52,138 nucleotides of DNA from a virus (lineage: Duplodnaviria; Caudoviricetes): positions 1 through 52,138 of IMG/VR virus record IMGVR_UViG_3300028840_005437. One strand, 5' to 3'. This document shows, piece by piece, positions 2,387-43,540 of this stretch. The notes under the pieces were generated by a model that saw only the letters and a program-made list of their open reading frames with translations, was not told the DNA's origin and searched no databases. Position 1 is the first letter of the stretch; every line of letters starts with the position of its first letter. Made by a program: the position numbers and the translations under genes.

Positions 2387-3353
2387 CCTCGTCCTTATAT
2401 CGTCCCCATACGACGATCATGTAGGTTTCCGGTCGTCTATGCAGAAAAGGAGCGTGTCTGCTGACCTTGCTGAAAACTCTCTTGTCTCGCTCCTTAAGCC
2501 ACTTCAAAAGGTCGTCCTGGTCTTTCGTCTCCGAGACTCCTTGTCTGATGAATTCGTAAAGCTCCTTTTGGGTCATACGGTTTTCGGGCGGCTTGTTTCG
2601 GGGAGCTTTGCCTTCGCCCGACTCCATCTTTATTTCCAAAGCGTCGAATTGCTTTCTTAACTTCGACATCGATAAAATGTTCACCTTCCAGAATTCGTCC
2701 GTCTGACACCACGCGATAACCTGCTTCACTTTCTCGATAGGACGCTGATCGATTCTTAGGATCGCGTCCGCGCTTCTGGCCCATAACTGAAGATTGGGCT
2801 TCTTGAAGTCTGGTTTGTTATTCCTGATATGATTCAGAAGAAAAAGAGACAATCGAAACTCGTTAGAGTTTTCGGGGAAGGTTTTTATTCTTTTTGATTC
2901 TTCTTTATTCTTATTGGATGGTTCCCGTTGCCTGTCCGTCCGCCTTACCGTTGCCTGTCCGTCCGCCTTACCGTTCGGGTTACTGTCTGCCTTACTATTC
3001 GCCTTACCGCTATCTTCGGGGTCAAGTTGATAAGTATTATAATTACATATAGTTATAAGTGTAGTTAGATTTCCTCTTTGCTGTGCTATCATGCCTTCCG
3101 TTTCTAGCAAATTCAGGAAACGCGAAACTTTGCCGCGAGACCAACCCCAACGATTTTTTAAGGTTTCCAAAGAATCGGCATTCTGACCCCGCTTGACATC
3201 TACCCGGATGGTCTTCTTATAGAAATGACCATCTTTATAATTAGCCCTGCCGATCAAATCAACCCAAGCCTGACCTTTTGTGAAAGGCTCCGAAGTCCAA
3301 AGCGGATGACTGAGGAGCTTTCTATTTATCTGAAAGTGATTTTTGACTGTCAA
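2373..3353 (-). CDS. Phage replication initiator (lambda O / DnaD-like)
   Basis: INRKLLSHPLW, AWVDLI, wHTH LKNRWGWSRGKVSRFL, ITICNYNTYQ, FWKVNILSMSKLRKQFD; lies upstream of dnaB; internal iteron-like repeats. Confidence 0.85.
   Translation of the reverse strand: MTVKNHFQINRKLLSHPLWTSEPFTKGQAWVDLIGRANYKDGHFYKKTIRVDVKRGQNADSLETLKNRWGWSRGKVSRFLNLLETEGMIAQQRGNLTTLITICNYNTYQLDPEDSGKANSKADSNPNGKADGQATVRRTDRQREPSNKNKEESKRIKTFPENSNEFRLSLFLLNHIRNNKPDFKKPNLQLWARSADAILRIDQRPIEKVKQVIAWCQTDEFWKVNILSMSKLRKQFDALEIKMESGEGKAPRNKPPENRMTQKELYEFIRQGVSETKDQDDLLKWLKERDKRVFSKVSRHAPFLHRRPETYMIVVWGRYKDEDDDE
2881..3010. promoter_or_regulatory. Putative replication origin (iterons plus AT-rich tract) inside the initiator gene
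   Basis: Two perfect 23-bp repeats CCGTTGCCTGTCCGTCCGCCTTA (2925-2970), further GCCTTAC copies, and an adjacent strand-asymmetric AT-rich tract at 2881-2915. Confidence 0.6.
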
Positions 3354-3501
3354 TTGTACCCTTCAGCATGTCGTTAAGCAGAAGACGGTTTACGATTTCG
3401 CTTTTGCTGACCTTCAAATCTCCCGCTTGAATCTCAAGATACTCGTTCAGCTCCTTTTCCAAATAAAGAGAGACGCTTTCCCCTTTTCGTTCCTTAGCCA
3501 T
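3322..3501 (-). CDS. Ribbon-helix-helix (CopG/Arc-like) regulator, 59 aa
   Basis: Manual translation MAKERKGESVSLYLEKELNEYLEIQAGDLKVSKSEIVNRLL...; AGGAG RBS. Confidence 0.7.
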   Translation of the reverse strand: MAKERKGESVSLYLEKELNEYLEIQAGDLKVSKSEIVNRLLLNDMLKGTIDSQKSLSDK

Positions 3502-3578: not shown

Positions 3579-3746
3579 TTAAAGACATGCAAACAGCGCT
3601 CCCAATGAAGAAATTGCCGCAATTAACAGGGAAATAACAAGCAGCGCATCATCCTGGTTATTAACTGCAATACCGACTCCAAGAAGAGCCGCCAGCGCAA
3701 CTGAAAAACATATCATATATATTGTGATTCTTAAACTAAATTTCAT
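3579..3746 (-). CDS. Small two-TM membrane protein, 55 aa
   Basis: Manual translation MKFSLRITIYMICFSVALAALLGVGIAV...; RBS present. Confidence 0.5.
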   Translation of the reverse strand: MKFSLRITIYMICFSVALAALLGVGIAVNNQDDALLVISLLIAAISSLGALFACL

Positions 3747-3799
3747 CTTCCCTCTTTGTTAGCGGAAAATTTTCATTTCCAGGAAAAATATCAGCTTGA

Positions 3800-3872
3800 C
3801 TCCCCAAGCAAGACTCGAACTTGCGACTTCATGGTTAACAGCCATGCGCTCTACCAACTGAACTATTGGGGA
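3800..3872 (-). tRNA. tRNA-Asn(GTT)
   Basis: TCCCCAATAGTTCAGTTGGTAGAGCGCATGGCTGTTAACCATGAAGTCGCAAGTTCGAGTCTTGCTTGGGGAG: canonical cloverleaf; followed by TCA, so CCA is not encoded. Confidence 0.95.
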
Positions 3873-3956
3873 TCAAAAAAAAATTACCGCGCAGCTCCGT
3901 GCAAAATCAAAAGCCGATCGTCCTTCGCTCGAAAAACTTTCTCGGAGATTTCATCA

Positions 3957-4050
3957 TCTTTCAGCCTTAACCTTTAACCGATTTAAACTTTCAGCTTTAA
4001 GCCCTGAATCTTTAGCCTTAAGCTTTGAATTTTAAGCTTTGCCGGTTTAA
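3957..4050 (-). repeat. Degenerate 7-nt tandem repeats (consensus ~TTAAAGC)
   Basis: ttaaaat tcaaagc ttaaggc taaagat tcagggc ttaaagc tgaaagt ttaaatc gg ttaaagg ttaaggc tgaaaga. Confidence 0.8.
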
Positions 4051-4071
4051 GGTCCAATGGACCATAATCAG

Positions 4072-4170
4072 TGCTTGATTTAGAGTCAAGTGCGTTTTCC
4101 ATTCCGCCACGTCTCCATACGGAAACGCCGGGATTCGAACCCGGAAACTGCTTGATTAAAATTCAAGTGC
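4072..4170 (-). tRNA. Circularly permuted tRNA-like element (3' half precedes 5' half); anticodon CTA, duplicate arm with TTT
   Basis: T-arm CCGGG-TTCGAAT-CCCGG, acceptor 3' strand CGTTTCC-G, linker TAT, then GGAGACG-TG-GCGGAATGGAAAACGC-A-CTTGA-CTCTAAA-TCAAG. Confidence 0.7.
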
Positions 4171-4229
4171 AGGGATACCCTCCCTGCGGGGAGACGAGTT
4201 CATGATTTTTCGCGCGGCAATTTTCAGTC

Positions 4230-4850
4230 CTAAACTTCTATGAACGTTATAGCGTTAGCCTCCGACAAAACGGAATCCACTTCGGAGTCGAACCTGTCGT
4301 TCTTTTCCTCCAATTCCTCAATGGTTTTCCTGAGATTCAAGGGATCGACTAATTTTAATTCATTGGCTTCAATATAAGGCTTCGTCACGTTTATAACGTC
4401 TTTGTCCGTCAGCTTCACGTTGTCTTTCGCTAATGCGGCTTCAGCTATCTGCAATGCCTGCTGAGCGACAGCCTTATTATGATTTTCAAGCCACGAGCTT
4501 ACTTCGGCGTAACGCTTTTTCAACGTTTTCAGAAAGGCGTTTCTTTGTTCGGTCATATGCTTTCTGTGAATGGCGTCCGCGATCGACATCTTCTCTCCAT
4601 TGATGTCGACGATGGTTTCAGTGTTGGCTTTCGCGATAGCGGACTTAATAGCCGTCCTCCTGTCAAACAAGTCATTCGCCTTTTGAAAATCGGCACAGGC
4701 CTTTTTAATGAAGTCGTTTTCCTCATGCCGGTTGTTGACGAGTTTTTTAATCTGCTTCCAGCCTATCGGCTCGATATTCACGTTAAGCTTGGCCATCTTT
4801 TTATCTATAAGCCTCAATTCTCCCAATGCTCTATGCAATGTCATCTCCAT
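4230..4850 (-). CDS. DIP1984/septicolysin-like long helical-hairpin protein
   Basis: MTLHRALGELRLIDKK..IKSAIAKANTETIVDINGEKMSIADAI..LVDPL..EVDSVLSEANAITFIEV, recognised as this family's pattern. Confidence 0.7.
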   Translation of the reverse strand: MEMTLHRALGELRLIDKKMAKLNVNIEPIGWKQIKKLVNNRHEENDFIKKACADFQKANDLFDRRTAIKSAIAKANTETIVDINGEKMSIADAIHRKHMTEQRNAFLKTLKKRYAEVSSWLENHNKAVAQQALQIAEAALAKDNVKLTDKDVINVTKPYIEANELKLVDPLNLRKTIEELEEKNDRFDSEVDSVLSEANAITFIEV

Positions 4851-6502: not shown

Positions 6503-6913
6503 TTAGTCAGGTTTGTTTTTCAGCCTTTTCTTATAATCCATAAGCCCCCCGTTAACAAGTTCTCTCGGAGGCCGCGGAAAGTCGCCGTCGACAGGTCTCC
6601 ATAGATGAAGACAGGCGGGGTGAAAATTCACATACTCGGACTTGGGAGGATGAATCTGCATAACCGCGTCCTCATCGTCCCAAAAAAGTGATTTGACCTT
6701 GCGCATGATTTTCCATGACGGAGGATTTTTCGGAATCCTGGCGCCGGGATTGGCGGCGGTCACGGAGACATGCTCCCACCCCAGAATATCGCTCGCTACG
6801 CATAATACCGACATTCCCGAATACGAGAATATAAAGGCTCCGTTGTTTCCCGCGCTCTCGCCTGTCGCCAGACTTCCGGTTTCGATTCTGTATTTTTCGG
6901 GGACTTTAAACAT
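6503..6913 (-). CDS. Conserved phage hypothetical protein
   Basis: GWEHVSV..PSW..M..VK.LFW..QIHPPKSEYVN.HP.CLHLWRP signature. Confidence 0.8.
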   Translation of the reverse strand: MFKVPEKYRIETGSLATGESAGNNGAFIFSYSGMSVLCVASDILGWEHVSVTAANPGARIPKNPPSWKIMRKVKSLFWDDEDAVMQIHPPKSEYVNFHPACLHLWRPVDGDFPRPPRELVNGGLMDYKKRLKNKPD

Positions 6914-6934: not shown

Positions 6935-7117
6935 CTATCTGAAAAATTTATCATTGACGCCTGCTACGCATATCCAGAAAATGGCGGTCAATGTCCAGAA
7001 AATAGCTTCATCTATATTGTCCTCATGATTAAGAATCCCAACCACCTGACATATTATCGCGGTAAAGCCGCACATTAAAGTTAAAACAATCCTCATTATT
7101 AGCCTCTTTTTCGTCAT
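6935..7117 (-). CDS. Small two-TM membrane protein
   Basis: Likely start MTKKRLIMRIVL; two hydrophobic helices. Confidence 0.45.
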   Translation of the reverse strand: MTKKRLIMRIVLTLMCGFTAIICQVVGILNHEDNIDEAIFWTLTAIFWICVAGVNDKFFR

Positions 7118-7315
7118 AATTATCGAATTTTTCCGATAAGAGTTAGGATTAGAGGGGTTGTCAGTATCAACCCCTCTGGAGACAGTCCTAGTTTTTAAGG
7201 ATCGCTCGACGGCTCTACAACGATCCCGATTCACCGAAGACGCGGAAAATATGATACTAAAAAAACACGCCTTATGCCGGAGAATTGCGGACTATCGCCT
7301 GGAGATGCGTTGCGC

Positions 7316-39666: not shown

Positions 39667-41001
39667 CTATTTCTGTGGCTCATCGAACTGGTCGTCAGTA
39701 TATCGGTCTCGAGAAATCGGCACCATAGACGCCGGTCTGTACAGCATGTCTCCTCCCTCGTCCAGTTTCTCCATTCCGGCCATCGTCCTCAGCTCGTTTA
39801 TAGTGTATATCCCCGTCTCGCCTTTCTCCTTCACCTCTCTCGTCTTGCGATTGTTAAGCGCCGAAATAGCGGACTCGTCGTAAGTCAGCGTCAGGTTTTC
39901 GGAACGCTTGTACCTGGGCAACAGAAACAGATTCAGCTCCTCGAACAGTCTGTCGGCCAAAGGCAGCACTCCGTTGTCGTAAAGCTGATCGTTAGCCGTT
40001 TCCATATTGGAGAAGGTCTGACGAGACGATGATATGAACGGCAAAGGAATCTTGTACTGAACGTAAATAGTCTCCCTGGTGTCGCGCCTCCCGGATATGA
40101 AGTCCATTTCCTGATTGGTGGTCAGCAAAGTCTCCCATGACGCCTCCCGGTCCGGAATATCGAAAACAACGGGCTTGCCGCTGTTGCTCGCGCCCGCGAA
40201 CTTCGTTTGAAACTGCTCCACCAGTCTCTTATATTGATCCTCGGTCAGAACGTCGCCCCCTTCCTCCTCCGAAGCCTTTCCCGCCGTCAGCGTCAGAATA
40301 CCCGAAGGCCGCGCCCCTCTTTTCAGGAGACTAACGTTATGCGTCGACGACAGGTTGTACCAGTCTATTTCCGGCAATATGGCCGAAACCGGAGTTTGAC
40401 CGACCAGCATGCTCTTATTGGGATTGAATCTCTTTACCTGCCAAAGCTCCGACCAGTCCTCGAAGTAGTATCTGAAAACGCCGCCTATTTCGTCGCGCTT
40501 GTACGCCATGCCGCCCGATTGCGTCTCCAGATTGAAAACCGCGGCGAACCCGTCCTTGTCGTCCGGCTGAATATACGAAATCTGCTGCGGCCACGGGCCG
40601 TAAATCTCAAGAGGCTCACGCCTCACGTCTCCCGACGCCGTCAGGTAGGTGTTTCCCGTAATCAGATAAAAGGCGGCGAGCCGATACAGAAACTCGCTTC
40701 CTGTCGAATCCGCGTTCGGCCGTTTCAGCAAATCAAGAACGGGATGACCCGATACGATTTCCTCCTTGTCGCCCTTTTTCTCCTTCACTATCGGCTTCAA
40801 GGATGAGAATTCGGAACTAAGAATATCCACCGCGCTCGAAAGAGGCGCCGTCTGGTCGAATAGTGAAACGGTCGCATACGCCGCGAGGTCATGATGACCG
40901 TAGGTCGTCAGATATTCGGAAAACGCGCCGAGAGGAACGTATGATTTGCGAACCAGACGCGGCGAAGCCGTTTTACGTTTGAAGGGATTCCAGAATCTCA
41001 T
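39667..41001 (-). CDS. Portal protein, HK97 family
   Basis: HPVLDLLKRPN, LITGNTY, GARPSGIL, TINELR. Confidence 0.95.
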   Translation of the reverse strand: MRFWNPFKRKTASPRLVRKSYVPLGAFSEYLTTYGHHDLAAYATVSLFDQTAPLSSAVDILSSEFSSLKPIVKEKKGDKEEIVSGHPVLDLLKRPNADSTGSEFLYRLAAFYLITGNTYLTASGDVRREPLEIYGPWPQQISYIQPDDKDGFAAVFNLETQSGGMAYKRDEIGGVFRYYFEDWSELWQVKRFNPNKSMLVGQTPVSAILPEIDWYNLSSTHNVSLLKRGARPSGILTLTAGKASEEEGGDVLTEDQYKRLVEQFQTKFAGASNSGKPVVFDIPDREASWETLLTTNQEMDFISGRRDTRETIYVQYKIPLPFISSSRQTFSNMETANDQLYDNGVLPLADRLFEELNLFLLPRYKRSENLTLTYDESAISALNNRKTREVKEKGETGIYTINELRTMAGMEKLDEGGDMLYRPASMVPISRDRYTDDQFDEPQK

Positions 41002-42321
41002 CTACAGCGCTCTCGCTCTACGTCGTTGTTTTTTGCGTCCCGATTCGAGAAAAAGATAAGTTCCCCCCCAGACAAGCGCGTCAACTCTATTCGGAGATTT
41101 TCCAAGTCCCGGAACCCATTCAAGCTGTTCGTTCTCCAGCTTGTCCAGACCTTCCATGTGCTTTATCTGACCGTTTTCGTACAATGTGACGATTGGCTCC
41201 GCTCTTGGATGCTTGCCCTTGCTGGCAGGCACAAGCTTCACCGGGACCGTCGGGTCTTCCGCCCTCAAAGCCATTTTCACCAAAGCTCCTCCCTGGTTCT
41301 TTTCGGCCACTATCTTGTTGGCTCCGTAATACTGATAAGCCCACACCGCCTTTTTAGCCCATTGGGTCGCGGAAAGTTCCCCGCTATAATCGGCGACCAC
41401 AACCGCGTTGCCGTCCGGGCCTCTAAACGGAGTATCCTTGGACATCACCACAATTCCAACTTCGTCGGCCGTGAAATTTTCGCCCGGCTTTATGTCGTCG
41501 GCGACGTTCGGATCCAGAGCGACGACGGTCAAAGGAGCGTTCGTCATCCACGGTTCGCGGTCTTCTTCTGAAAGCTGCACCGCGTTAATCAGATCGTTGC
41601 TCCAAAGAGCGCCTTCGGTGTCGGAGGCGAAAAGGCCATGTTTAAATCTATCTCGCTTGCGCTTTCCCATGCTGTCAAGGACCTTAAAATAGGTCTTCGG
41701 CAAATGACGCTTGTTGTGAACTGGATTTATAAGCAACGATCCGTAATCTCTTTTCGCCGATTCAGACAGCTTTTTGTCGTTGTCGGGATGAATGCCCTTC
41801 ATGAATAGCTTGTATATCCAATGCTTTTTACTGGGCGGGTTGCAGTCGCCCAACAGTCTAAGCGGGAGCCCCGATTTTTCCCCTAAACGAGTTTTTATCG
41901 TGTCCTGGTGATGAAAATTCATTTCGGAGGCTTCGCTTAATAAAATAGTGCTATAGCGATTTCCTAAAATTTTATCCAGCCTTTCTCCTTCGTCCAGGCC
42001 GGCGAACCAGATCATGGATTTATTGTGAAATTCGCAATACCAGTCACCTTTATTGAGTTGGTAATGGACGTCTTTTTTTAAGCCTGGAAAACACTCGGCT
42101 AAAACATCGGGAAGCGTCTCATACCAAATCGACCGCTTAACGGCGTTAAATGTCCTTCTGAAAAAAACATGACGCGAAACCTTATGCAGAGCTCTTGTCA
42201 CCGTGACATACACGTTAGTGAACGTCTTGCCGGAATTACTTCCGCCAAACAGCATAGTGAACAGATGTTCTCCAATTAGATCAATCGCCTCTCGTTGCCT
42301 GGGATTTCTATCAAAAGACAT
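41002..42321 (-). CDS. terL: Terminase large subunit
   Basis: GGSNSGKT, LSEASE, DCNP, VALDP, AEKNQGG, SPNRVDALVW. Confidence 0.95.
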   Translation of the reverse strand: MSFDRNPRQREAIDLIGEHLFTMLFGGSNSGKTFTNVYVTVTRALHKVSRHVFFRRTFNAVKRSIWYETLPDVLAECFPGLKKDVHYQLNKGDWYCEFHNKSMIWFAGLDEGERLDKILGNRYSTILLSEASEMNFHHQDTIKTRLGEKSGLPLRLLGDCNPPSKKHWIYKLFMKGIHPDNDKKLSESAKRDYGSLLINPVHNKRHLPKTYFKVLDSMGKRKRDRFKHGLFASDTEGALWSNDLINAVQLSEEDREPWMTNAPLTVVALDPNVADDIKPGENFTADEVGIVVMSKDTPFRGPDGNAVVVADYSGELSATQWAKKAVWAYQYYGANKIVAEKNQGGALVKMALRAEDPTVPVKLVPASKGKHPRAEPIVTLYENGQIKHMEGLDKLENEQLEWVPGLGKSPNRVDALVWGGTYLFLESGRKKQRRRARAL

Positions 42322-42736: not shown

Positions 42737-43540
42737 CTACAATGCCCACCTGGGCTTTAAATATGAATTTTTAAGCCGATCCTTCTCGCTGGAGTTCAGC
42801 TCTCTTCCGTAATATAGAACTTCCGCGATATGTCCCTTCATCTGAGTCACCGGATTAGCGCCCGGCGGCACAAGATTGGGCTGGCTTCCAAGCATTGGAG
42901 TCGGACCTCCTCCCGCGTAGATTTGAGAGCCGTAAGCGCCAGACAATCCGGCTGTCGCTCCGTTGTAATCCGTGTCCAAGCGTCCGGGCTTTCTGGTGCA
43001 GATCAACAGCGAATACGTTGAAACCAGAATCGGTCTAACCCGCAGGCTATTCCCCGCCGCGTCTCTCGCGAAAAACACGTCCTGGCTTCCTTTATTCTCC
43101 GATCTGACTAAAACGATAGGATTAGCCGCCTGCTGGACATAGTCCGCCATCAATGTGGGCGCCGCCTGGATTCCGTTCAAATCGGATTGGAAAACGAAAA
43201 ACCATGTCCCAGTGTCGGTCGTTATGAAATCGTTGACGCATGTCAGGTGTCCAAGATTCACATCGTTAACGCTGATCGTCGCCCGGCCGTTCTGCTGATT
43301 CAGTTGGTATTCAGGCTGATTAGTCGGCGTAGACTGCGAAAAATGATTTCCGTTCCCGCTCTTGTCGTACCACGTCGTTACATATTGCGAAAGCCGCAGG
43401 TCGACCGTATTTATATCAGACGCGTCAAGCCACAACTTCAAGCCCGGAATGTCCAGCGGGTTGAACGGACGTCTCTCCGTGTATATCGCGCGGTTCGCCG
43501 CTCTGCCTATCGAGCTCGTCACTGCTCTGGATACGCTCAT
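42737..43540 (-). CDS. LamG/concanavalin A-like lectin-domain virion protein
   Basis: LKLWLDASD..WYDKSGNGNH..Q..QP..GHIAEVLYY..YL..RW; likely start MSVSRAV. Confidence 0.85.
   Translation of the reverse strand: MSVSRAVTSSIGRAANRAIYTERRPFNPLDIPGLKLWLDASDINTVDLRLSQYVTTWYDKSGNGNHFSQSTPTNQPEYQLNQQNGRATISVNDVNLGHLTCVNDFITTDTGTWFFVFQSDLNGIQAAPTLMADYVQQAANPIVLVRSENKGSQDVFFARDAAGNSLRVRPILVSTYSLLICTRKPGRLDTDYNGATAGLSGAYGSQIYAGGGPTPMLGSQPNLVPPGANPVTQMKGHIAEVLYYGRELNSSEKDRLKNSYLKPRWAL

Follow-up and report, generated by a model that had tools for sequence, protein, structure and literature searches.

Does a tRNA-like sequence whose 3′ half precedes its 5′ half encode a working tRNA, or does it serve as something other than an adaptor in translation? 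This question is raised by a stretch on the minus strand (positions 4170–4071) of the caudovirus record IMGVR_UViG_3300028840_005437 from IMG/VR, a 52-kb (52,138-base) sequence with an estimated completeness of 89% that was analyzed over its whole length and is hereafter termed the window. In order along the minus strand, the stretch comprises a hairpin, a T arm, a 7-bp acceptor helix with a 4-nt closing loop, a D arm and a second hairpin. We propose that it constitutes the tRNA-mimic domain of a large phage non-coding RNA (ncRNA), which would be recognized by tRNA enzymes rather than used in decoding, and we assign this reading a probability of about 0.6. Thus, a tRNA look-alike appears more likely than a working suppressor tRNA.

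Detection of a permuted tRNA-like module

The elements of a circularly permuted tRNA that a preliminary description of this DNA had listed are all present on the minus strand where it had placed them. Scripted re-joining of the two halves yields a sequence that ARAGORN calls as a tRNA with either of the two hairpin loops in the anticodon position, whereas the native order receives no tRNA call. The earlier claim of a permuted cloverleaf within a larger ncRNA is supported. Two features of the procedure bear on these calls: the padding used in re-joining introduced one artificial terminal pair, and ARAGORN names any CUA anticodon 'Pyl'. In the re-joined cloverleaf, the D loop measures 8 nt and includes GG, the T loop is canonical, the anticodon stem has 5 bp and the variable stretch 6 nt. 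Its acceptor helix is formed by seven pairs, one of which is G-U, and the acceptor 3′ strand is followed by G and then UAU, giving G73 as the discriminator and no encoded CCA.

At curated thresholds, ARAGORN and Rfam recover only a tRNA-Asn (3800–3872) at this locus and not the module. Under looser thresholds, each half on its own matches the Rfam tRNA model, with scores of 29.2 bits (4120–4184) and 21.7 bits (4074–4107). By comparison, R2, a covariance model of the permuted module built from 54 relatives with the window left out, matches positions 4155–4086 of the window over its full length with a score of 53.7 bits (E = 4.4 × 10−15), and this is the sole significant match on both strands of the window. 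Logan contigs from two runs cover positions 3600–4600 in one piece with zero differences and zero joints; since both runs may represent the source sample and may amount to a single data set, they do not provide independent support. As far as can be told, the arrangement is not an assembly artefact. An 18-base exact pattern taken from the acceptor hairpin matched only two unrelated contigs, by chance, and a DNA search of the phage collection with positions 3700–4700 returned nothing but tRNA-Asn look-alikes.

Conservation of the permuted module

The module lies downstream of a gene coding for a 206-aa protein of the PHROG 1491 family, for which the protein collection contains nine near-length relatives. 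The alignment of these relatives was used to seek further loci, yielding 80 viral, 11 genome and 80 metagenome loci, with some contigs present in two of the sets; the 11 genome loci come mostly from metagenome-assembled genomes of Bacteroidota, Ignavibacteria and Kapaibacterium. When the loci were scanned for a T arm with a self-complementary acceptor hairpin and then a D arm behind it, many relatives showed the same layout approximately 100 nt after the gene.

We then tested four helices—the long-range anticodon stem, the T stem, the acceptor and the D stem—for the maintenance of pairing. In a MAFFT alignment of 16 sequences, 93.7% of the cells are paired as against 63.2% upon shuffling and 34–48% in slid controls, with changes on both sides in 18 of the 21 pairs. 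When 54 sequences were fitted to a second covariance model of the module (R1), the corresponding values were 95.3%, 62.2% and 33–45%, with both-side changes in 19 of the 21 pairs. None of 500 shuffles reached the observed pairing in either alignment. All seven acceptor pairs have changed on both sides among the relatives, and the invariant columns of the 16-sequence alignment are the tRNA tertiary positions, namely U8, G10, A14, G18/19, A21, G53, T54, T55, C56, A58 and C61. These comparisons indicate that the module is a real, selected structure.

Searches with R1 place the module inside the ncRNA in the window, in 15 of the 91 viral and genome loci and in 49 of the 80 metagenome loci. The remaining matches are junctions of ordinary tandem tRNAs outside the ncRNA (e.g., 56 bits in locus L052), and the report on YrlA, a bacterial Y RNA, mentions false positives of the same kind (PMC4201824). 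Among the 56 distinct modules, the T stem is fully paired in 51, and the acceptor has seven pairs in 31, six in 20 and five in 5. The acceptor loop, as measured by script, ranges from 0 to 20 nt, and the acceptor 5′ strand starts with G in 31 modules. Seven modules carry an N-CCA directly behind the acceptor 3′ strand, compared to about 0.9 expected by chance, and all seven have acceptor 5′ strands beginning with GG. Two permuted modules occur in tandem within one ncRNA in loci L156 (1530–1680) and L172 (1480–1657).

The anticodon region sets the family apart from ordinary tRNAs. A long-range stem between the 5 nt before the variable loop and the 5 nt after the D arm is found in 51 of the 56 modules (5/5 pairs in 45 and 4/5 in 6), suggesting that the anticodon stem is normally a long-range helix serving the chain as both entry to and exit from the tRNA body. 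A local anticodon arm that closes after the D arm is confined to five modules: that of the window with CUA, those of L017 and L167 with UAG, that of L004 with GAG and one of the L172 modules with an unclear triplet. The window alone, among the 56, has both arrangements at 5/5 pairs.

The ncRNA family harboring the module

Within the window, the module sits in a 357-nt gap between the open reading frame (ORF) for the 206-aa protein (4850–4230) and the tRNA-Asn, all on the minus strand. This gap has a folding z-score of −2.49, with none of 100 shuffles folding as well. Across the loci, a conserved non-coding stretch lies directly 3′ of the gene in nearly all cases: the signature of the ncRNA was detected there in 145 of the 172 fetched loci, with lengths of 230–617 nt (median 340), and several of the 27 loci without it are cut contigs or slightly divergent members.

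The ncRNA is bounded by a 12-bp closing helix that retains 10–12 of its 12 pairs in 46 of 49 loci; its sequence varies by locus and its complementarity is kept. The 5′ closing strand is followed by GAAAA, the 3′ strand is preceded by GGCUG, and a U run comes after the helix. The family core further includes a pseudoknot-like element (CCC, hairpin, GGG), a hairpin with a 7-nt loop, AAAG-based repeats, and an AAAUCC motif with an inner helix. An RNAalifold analysis of 14 short members predicted 24 pairs, 19 of them with compensatory changes; such changes occur in the closing helix and in an equivalent of the inner helix, in which columns 248–252 of the alignment covary with columns 298–302. Part by part, the window RNA agrees with this consensus, from the closing helix with its GAAAA and (G/A)GCUG anchors, through the pseudoknot-like element and the AAAG repeats, to the AAAUC motif with the inner helix (Table 1). 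By this comparison, the module is one domain of a large structured ncRNA.

Table 1. Positions of the ncRNA, its parts and the flanking genes in the window
Feature	Position	Strand	Description
206-aa gene	4850–4230	minus	phrog_1491, E = 1.2 × 10−46; TAG stop at 4232–4230, 5 nt before the RNA
Whole structured ncRNA	4224–3880	minus	About 345 nt; U run and tRNA-Asn come next; compared with 49 related loci
Closing helix, 5′ strand	4224–4212	minus	13 bp, predicted to pair with 3880–3892; followed by the conserved GAAAA
Pseudoknot-like element	4190–4169	minus	CCC, 7-bp hairpin, GGG in the loop; same CCC/GGG and hairpin layout in relatives
Upstream hairpin (UUU arm)	4167–4151	minus	5 bp, 7-nt loop, loop triplet UUU
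Variable-loop equivalent	4150–4145	minus	6 nt, unpaired
T arm	4144–4128	minus	5-bp stem, 7-nt loop of the canonical tRNA T-loop type
Acceptor helix as hairpin	4127–4110	minus	3′ strand 4127–4121; loop G4120 and UAU 4119–4117; 5′ strand 4116–4110
U8, G9 and D arm	4109–4092	minus	D arm 4107–4092, 3–4-bp stem, loop with GG; followed by A
Module's own anticodon arm (CUA arm)	4090–4074	minus	5 bp, 7-nt loop with U33, CUA, A37 and A38
Small hairpin	4063–4051	minus	5 bp, 3-nt loop
A-rich run	4045–3955	minus	Short AAAG-based repeats, a hallmark of the family
Inner helix, 5′ strand	3947–3943	minus	After the AAAUC motif; predicted to pair with 3895–3899; equivalent helix covaries in relatives
Closing helix, 3′ strand	3892–3880	minus	AGCUG (GGCUG in the family consensus) on its 5′ side, U run on its 3′ side
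tRNA-Asn(GUU)	3872–3800	minus	Ordinary tRNA; ARAGORN; Rfam 68.4 bits; 7 nt past the ncRNA closing helix

The signature can also be read 3′ of the homologous gene in Vibrio phage pVp-1, Escherichia phage Av-05 and phage T5. The T5 member occupies an unannotated gap after T5.085 (about 43142–43504 on the minus strand of NC_005859, corresponding to 1643–2005 of locus L180) and displays the closing helix, a GAAA anchor, AAAG repeats and GGCUG. It contains no module of T arm, acceptor and D arm, and has no Rfam match. About 1.6 kb away, still within this tRNA-rich region, T5 has a further annotated RNA of 719 nt, 'RNAX, stable RNA with unknown functions' (40848–41566, represented by 1–67 of locus L180). 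More generally, members of the family usually lie in or beside phage tRNA gene clusters, and in Av-05 a tRNA follows within about 5 nt of the ncRNA.

The tRNA module is missing from many members, T5 among them. In another branch, 20 ncRNAs bear a tRNA-like domain in the normal order that is joined to the rest of the RNA through its acceptor stem. Such a domain lies at 3317–3388 of locus L052, where it scores 58.9 bits with the Rfam tRNA model, and at the same place in loci L043–L063 and L080, which belong to a clade of phage contigs of 90–160 kb. The normal-order domains of these loci have the unusual triplets AUA, AUG or GUA, and their acceptor stem runs on into the ncRNA. Beside the gene and ncRNA in several of the loci L043–L063 (3978–5462), there are tRNA arrays including CUA anticodons, and those of L069–L073 include UUA; both sets are candidate suppressor tRNAs.

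No family in Rfam 15 matches the ncRNA in searches with the window (curated and looser thresholds), with ten relatives, T5, pVp-1 and Av-05 (curated thresholds), or with L091, L016, L052 and the T5 locus (E up to 0.05). The literature searched describes neither the ncRNA family nor T5.085; that search did not cover the supplementary tables of PMC8040213, whose 3,161 candidate RNAs from the human microbiome could hold members from gut phages. Judging from these sequence surveys, the large ncRNA family that lies behind the PHROG 1491 gene is widespread and new to Rfam 15.

The two arms and the question of amber suppression

A repeat search confirmed the 22-nt direct repeats previously noted in the window: positions 4072–4093 and 4149–4170 are 86% identical and lie 77 nt apart. 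The accompanying idea of a tRNA circle inserted through its anticodon arm is not supported, for 56 distinct relatives have the module at one and the same position of a conserved ncRNA and the repeat is found in the window only. Nor do the two hairpins appear to be alternative anticodon arms of one tRNA. Relatives have a hairpin with a 7-nt loop, often UGCUAA, after the pseudoknot-like element, whether or not they contain the tRNA module (e.g., L020 and L016 lack it). In L017 and L167, which are closest to the window in the D arm and anticodon stem, this general hairpin is followed by the T arm after 7 and 13 nt, respectively, compared to 6 nt in the window. The upstream arm of the window thus occupies the position of the general hairpin, and the downstream CUA arm is best read, from its sequence, as the module's own, Leu-like anticodon arm.

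Positions 4155–4151 have two possible partners, being able to pair within the local upstream hairpin or with 4090–4086 in the long-range anticodon stem. Nearest-neighbor energies for the two alternatives are nearly equal, at −26.2 kcal/mol for two hairpins and −27.8 kcal/mol for the long-range stem with an outer helix. The window RNA is therefore predicted to be capable of forming either the two hairpins or the usual long-range stem of the family. Separately, there is an 11-nt perfect complementarity between positions 4156–4166 (the 5′ strand and loop of the upstream hairpin) and 4025–4035 in the A-rich repeats, for which no counterpart was seen by eye in the relatives.

The resemblance to tRNA-Pyl suggested in the preliminary description was not borne out. 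tRNA-Pyl has a compact D loop without GG, a 3-nt variable loop and a 6-bp anticodon stem. The window module has none of these features; it is canonical in the D and T loops, in its anticodon stem of 5 bp and in its variable stretch of 6 nt, and its 5′ half is most similar to a tRNA-Leu in a comparison with 148 phage tRNAs, a weak indication. With its closed arm (Leu triplet UAG), perfectly paired 7-bp acceptor, A73 and encoded CCA, the relative in L017 resembles a complete tRNA of the Leu type.

The anticodon loop of the window (U33, CUA, A37, A38) is a good suppressor-type loop, and a charged two-piece form is possible, though the family pattern does not require it. Among the 33 long ORFs of the window, the stops are TAG in 8, TAA in 16 and TGA in 9, and the large genes are read intact with the standard code. 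Were the eight TAG stops read through, the products would gain from 0 to 444 residues, and in two cases translation would run through an entire in-frame downstream gene. In one of these, the TAG of the terminase (41002–41004) stands directly before the in-frame portal ORF, such that read-through would fuse 439 and 444 residues; in the other, the ORF at 6938–7234 runs into the gene at 6506–6913. These run-ons probably reflect chance agreement of frame, and eight cases provide no evidence for or against programmed read-through. Of the functions suggested earlier, a processing signal and a decoy remain in consideration; amber suppression as the selected function fits poorly with the lack of a closed arm in 51 of the 56 modules, the differing triplets of the five closed arms, and a genome in which TAG ends 8 of 33 ORFs, all of them whole.

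A proposed tRNA mimic and its alternatives

In the mechanism we favor, the chain would enter the tRNA body through the 3′ strand of the anticodon stem, pass through the variable loop, the T arm, the capped 7-bp acceptor and the D arm, and exit through the 5′ strand of the anticodon stem. In the window, the exit strand would then meet its own complement and form a closed, Leu-like anticodon arm with CUA. Because the nucleotides of the tRNA elbow are invariant, an L-shaped fold is expected. Such a body may be recognized as a tRNA by tRNA-binding enzymes of the host or the phage. The first candidate among these is RNase P, which would cut 5′ of G4116, with 3′ trimming and CCA addition to follow; the outcome would be two base-paired RNA pieces with a tRNA-like end. 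Three observations suggest such cleavage: the acceptor has 7 bp and G at +1, encoded CCA is enriched among relatives, and YrlA from Mycobacterium smegmatis sets a precedent. A tRNA located 7 nt downstream in the window and about 5 nt downstream in Av-05 would tie the 3′ end of the ncRNA to tRNA processing as well. We take the tRNA shape, rather than decoding, to be the selected property since other branches carry a normal-order tRNA-like domain or, as in T5, none.

Several points weigh against this proposal. Transcription, RNA ends, cleavage and fold are all inferred from sequence. The loci were all reached via the protein, and the link between the gene and the RNA was therefore measured on a biased sample; likewise, the 54-sequence alignment, having been fitted to the structure, leans towards it. 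The window does not encode a CCA, and its closed arm retains U33 and A36-A37-A38, which a pure shape mimic would not obviously need; some anticodon-dependent role of this arm may exist. Moreover, the two arms of the window phage are identical at 19 of 22 positions and their two stems are identical, which the proposal leaves unexplained save by chance or a local copying event.

If the module were instead a genuine permuted tRNA gene, its acceptor hairpin would be opened by RNase P, 3′ trimming and CCA addition, and the resulting two-piece or ligated tRNA would be charged and read UAG. Charging would most plausibly be with Leu or Ser, since LeuRS/SerRS-type synthetases disregard the anticodon, and the remainder of the ncRNA would lie where class II tRNAs have their long variable arm. 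Such a gene would account for the ARAGORN call on the re-joined sequence, the canonical anticodon loop with U33 and A36-A37-A38, the proximity of the 5′ half to tRNA-Leu among the 148 phage tRNAs, the Leu triplet UAG in the closed arms of L017 and L167 (the former also with a 7-bp acceptor, A73 and CCA), and the enrichment of N-CCA in 7 of 56 modules. We consider it unlikely given that 51 of the 56 modules have no closed anticodon arm and that the five closed arms do not share one triplet (CUA, UAG twice, GAG and one unclear), with G73 and no CCA in the window itself. Further, TAG is the stop of 8 of 33 long ORFs, and no gene needs read-through of UAG to be whole. The junction lacks a bulge-helix-bulge, its flanks giving only two 5-bp helices around a 7×7 internal loop, and we know of no bacterial enzyme for that splicing route; a joined form was likewise not seen in the contigs, which are of DNA only. 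A bolder version, which we regard as a long shot, is that the family represents a new class of large phage RNA, extending even to T5, whose tRNA domain, once opened by RNase P and given a CCA end, would be a two-piece chargeable tRNA tethered to an RNA body of ~270 nt. Here it would be a Leu-type amber suppressor with the whole ncRNA as its 'variable arm', and the duplicated anticodon stem would let the RNA toggle between the closed CUA arm, which decodes, and the long-range stem, which does not. The selected tRNA-like shape, the location of the family in phage tRNA clusters and the two exposed 7-nt anticodon-type loops possible in the two-hairpin conformer are compatible with a decoy or sponge for tRNA-targeting defense nucleases, in which the UUU loop (as in tRNA-Lys), the CUA loop and the tRNA body would be bait that spares the real tRNAs. 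For T5, phage tRNAs are reported to neutralize a tRNA-cutting defense (PMC11464382). This possibility too seems doubtful for the window, as most relatives have no closed anticodon loop on the module, and the loop of the general hairpin, by reading and without a tally, is mostly GCU rather than UUU in the relatives, implying that no particular nuclease target is conserved. Further, the neighboring protein has no match to a defense or anti-defense family beyond weak PADLOC rows (E = 3.6 × 10−4 and worse).

We see very little room for a functionless remnant, comprising 1.3 units of a tandem tRNA duplication, or a scar of recombination or assembly. This would explain the 77-nt period of the repeat as one tRNA of 74 nt and a 3-nt spacer, ordinary tandem tRNA junctions do score on the same model (56 bits in L052), and the origin of permuted tRNA genes is usually modeled as a tandem duplication. 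However, 56 distinct relatives share the permuted layout, each of the four helices shows compensatory changes, and the arrangement is unchanged in the contigs of two runs. The covariation of the acceptor 3′ and 5′ strands would not be expected of unrelated neighbors, and the relatives have neither an upstream 5′ half nor a downstream 3′ half; these two observations argue against a decaying tandem pair, and the picture expected in that case, of a tandem pair of tRNAs each decaying on its own, was not observed in the relatives. The remnant reading appears largely refuted by the covariation and by the match of the model built without the window, even if a duplication may have been the first origin of the module. 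A YrlA-type Y RNA docking Ro60 (Rsr) likewise runs from the T arm through the closed acceptor to the D arm, and is nevertheless highly improbable here. The Rfam model of YrlA is silent on the module: its only row is of 13.5 bits at the tRNA-Asn (3756–3852) against a cut-off of 69 bits, with none at 3700–4400 for E up to 10. No TROVE gene (PF05731) was found in the 52,138-base, 89% complete record, in a search where control genomes gave matches; the RNA strand has no GNCGAA within 3880–4224, and the module forms part of a 345-nt RNA with a different architecture.

Two further candidates were considered and set aside. The permuted order, closing helix and A-rich stretch prompted a comparison with tmRNA, which was rejected with no ARAGORN tmRNA call in the window or in the ncRNAs of the relatives and no recognized tag frame. 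A Ro-binding helix for the CUUGACU and GGUCC motifs, suggested by a resemblance, was dropped, as the strand order is reversed and both motifs lie in local hairpins.

Comparison with known RNAs

A close structural parallel to the proposed tRNA mimic is YrlA (RF02553; PMC4201824; bioRxiv 10.1101/312249), a type of Y RNA from bacteria and mycobacteriophages, which shares the rotated order of a tRNA-like domain, an acceptor closed by a loop, an anticodon-stem equivalent that opens into the rest of the RNA, and the retention of tertiary nucleotides. The version from M. smegmatis, which has the same topology and a 7-bp acceptor, is described as being cut by RNase P and receiving CCA (PMC4201824), and YrlA RNAs are noted to carry a GNCGAAN0-1G motif near the 5′ end (PMC4201824). 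In contrast, the ncRNA of the window does not match the YrlA model of Rfam, comes without a Ro60 gene in the record and without GNCGAA, is three times longer, and has another core and another protein gene. Further, in the window phage the anticodon arm can close on itself.

GOLLD and ROOL are also large structured RNAs of phages and prophages near tRNA gene clusters, and GOLLD is said to sometimes contain tRNAs in a variable linker region (PMC12286853); the present family, too, has a variable site for tRNA-like inserts. The present ncRNAs differ from both in lacking a match to their Rfam models, in being smaller (230–617 nt) and in being linked to a protein gene. In comparison to GOLLD, the insert of the module-bearing branch is a permuted tRNA body without free ends and not a standard tRNA gene.

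The module shares with the permuted tRNA genes of algae and archaea the placement of the 3′ half before the 5′ half, a short linker across the acceptor ends and a good re-joined cloverleaf. Those of Cyanidioschyzon merolae, other algae and Thermofilum mature via a bulge-helix-bulge, circularization and opening of the acceptor, with a defined anticodon retained. In the present case, the bulge-helix-bulge is absent, 51 of 56 relatives have no anticodon loop, and the flanks are conserved ncRNA. Two-piece tmRNA, known from alphaproteobacteria and some cyanobacteria, is likewise permuted, with the T arm and acceptor 3′ strand ahead of the acceptor 5′ strand and with far ends that pair. The module resembles it in the permuted order, in the pairing of the far ends of its two parts and in the CCA that precedes the spacer in 7 of 56 relatives; it differs in having no ARAGORN tmRNA call, in its full D and anticodon stems, in the absence of a recognized tag frame and in that G3-U70 is not general.

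Significance of the tRNA-like domain

Mimicry of tRNA in rotated order is known from Ro60-linked Y RNAs; in the present case, it is seen in a different and much larger phage RNA as an exchangeable domain with strong compensatory evolution. The combination of a permuted tRNA body with a protein-linked phage RNA family in which it is exchangeable, and which extends from phages of marine sediment to T5, is new to us and absent from Rfam 15 and from the literature searched. Taken together, the permuted, normal-order or absent domain, the CCA in a subset of members and the location in tRNA clusters suggest that phages have repeatedly grafted the tRNA shape onto this ncRNA. This bears on what makes phages retain GOLLD, ROOL and similar large RNAs next to tRNA islands, and on how tRNA-processing enzymes and tRNA-directed defenses are engaged during infection. 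Given their presence in the laboratory phage T5, the RNA and its partner gene are open to bench study at once.

The PHROG 1491 protein and its genomic setting

The 206-aa protein has no sequence match in Pfam, NCBIfam or PDB. PADLOC gave only weak rows for it (E = 3.6 × 10−4 and worse), those for SelB being likewise weak, and its matches in the protein atlas are hypothetical viral clusters only. The predicted structure consists of long helices and a small sheet (pLDDT 90.9); a Foldseek search with this model returned nothing at E ≤ 0.001, the best row being 3kdq, an uncharacterized Corynebacterium protein. Scans of viral and genome contigs with single-protein patterns (of the 206-aa protein, the DnaD-like protein and DnaB) found no relatives, whereas the alignment-based scans did. 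Among cultured phages, none exceeding ~38% protein identity to the module-bearing branch was found. Homologs of PHROG 1491 nevertheless occur in 726 records of the phage collection, the T5 homolog being T5.085.

The genes of the window include those for DnaB, a DnaD-like loader, a methylase, the terminase, portal, protease and capsid, and Mu-like baseplate proteins. Many phage records label PHROG 1491 as 'tail fiber protein'; in the window, the gene adjoins the replication genes and lies away from those for the tail and baseplate, and the label looks unfounded.

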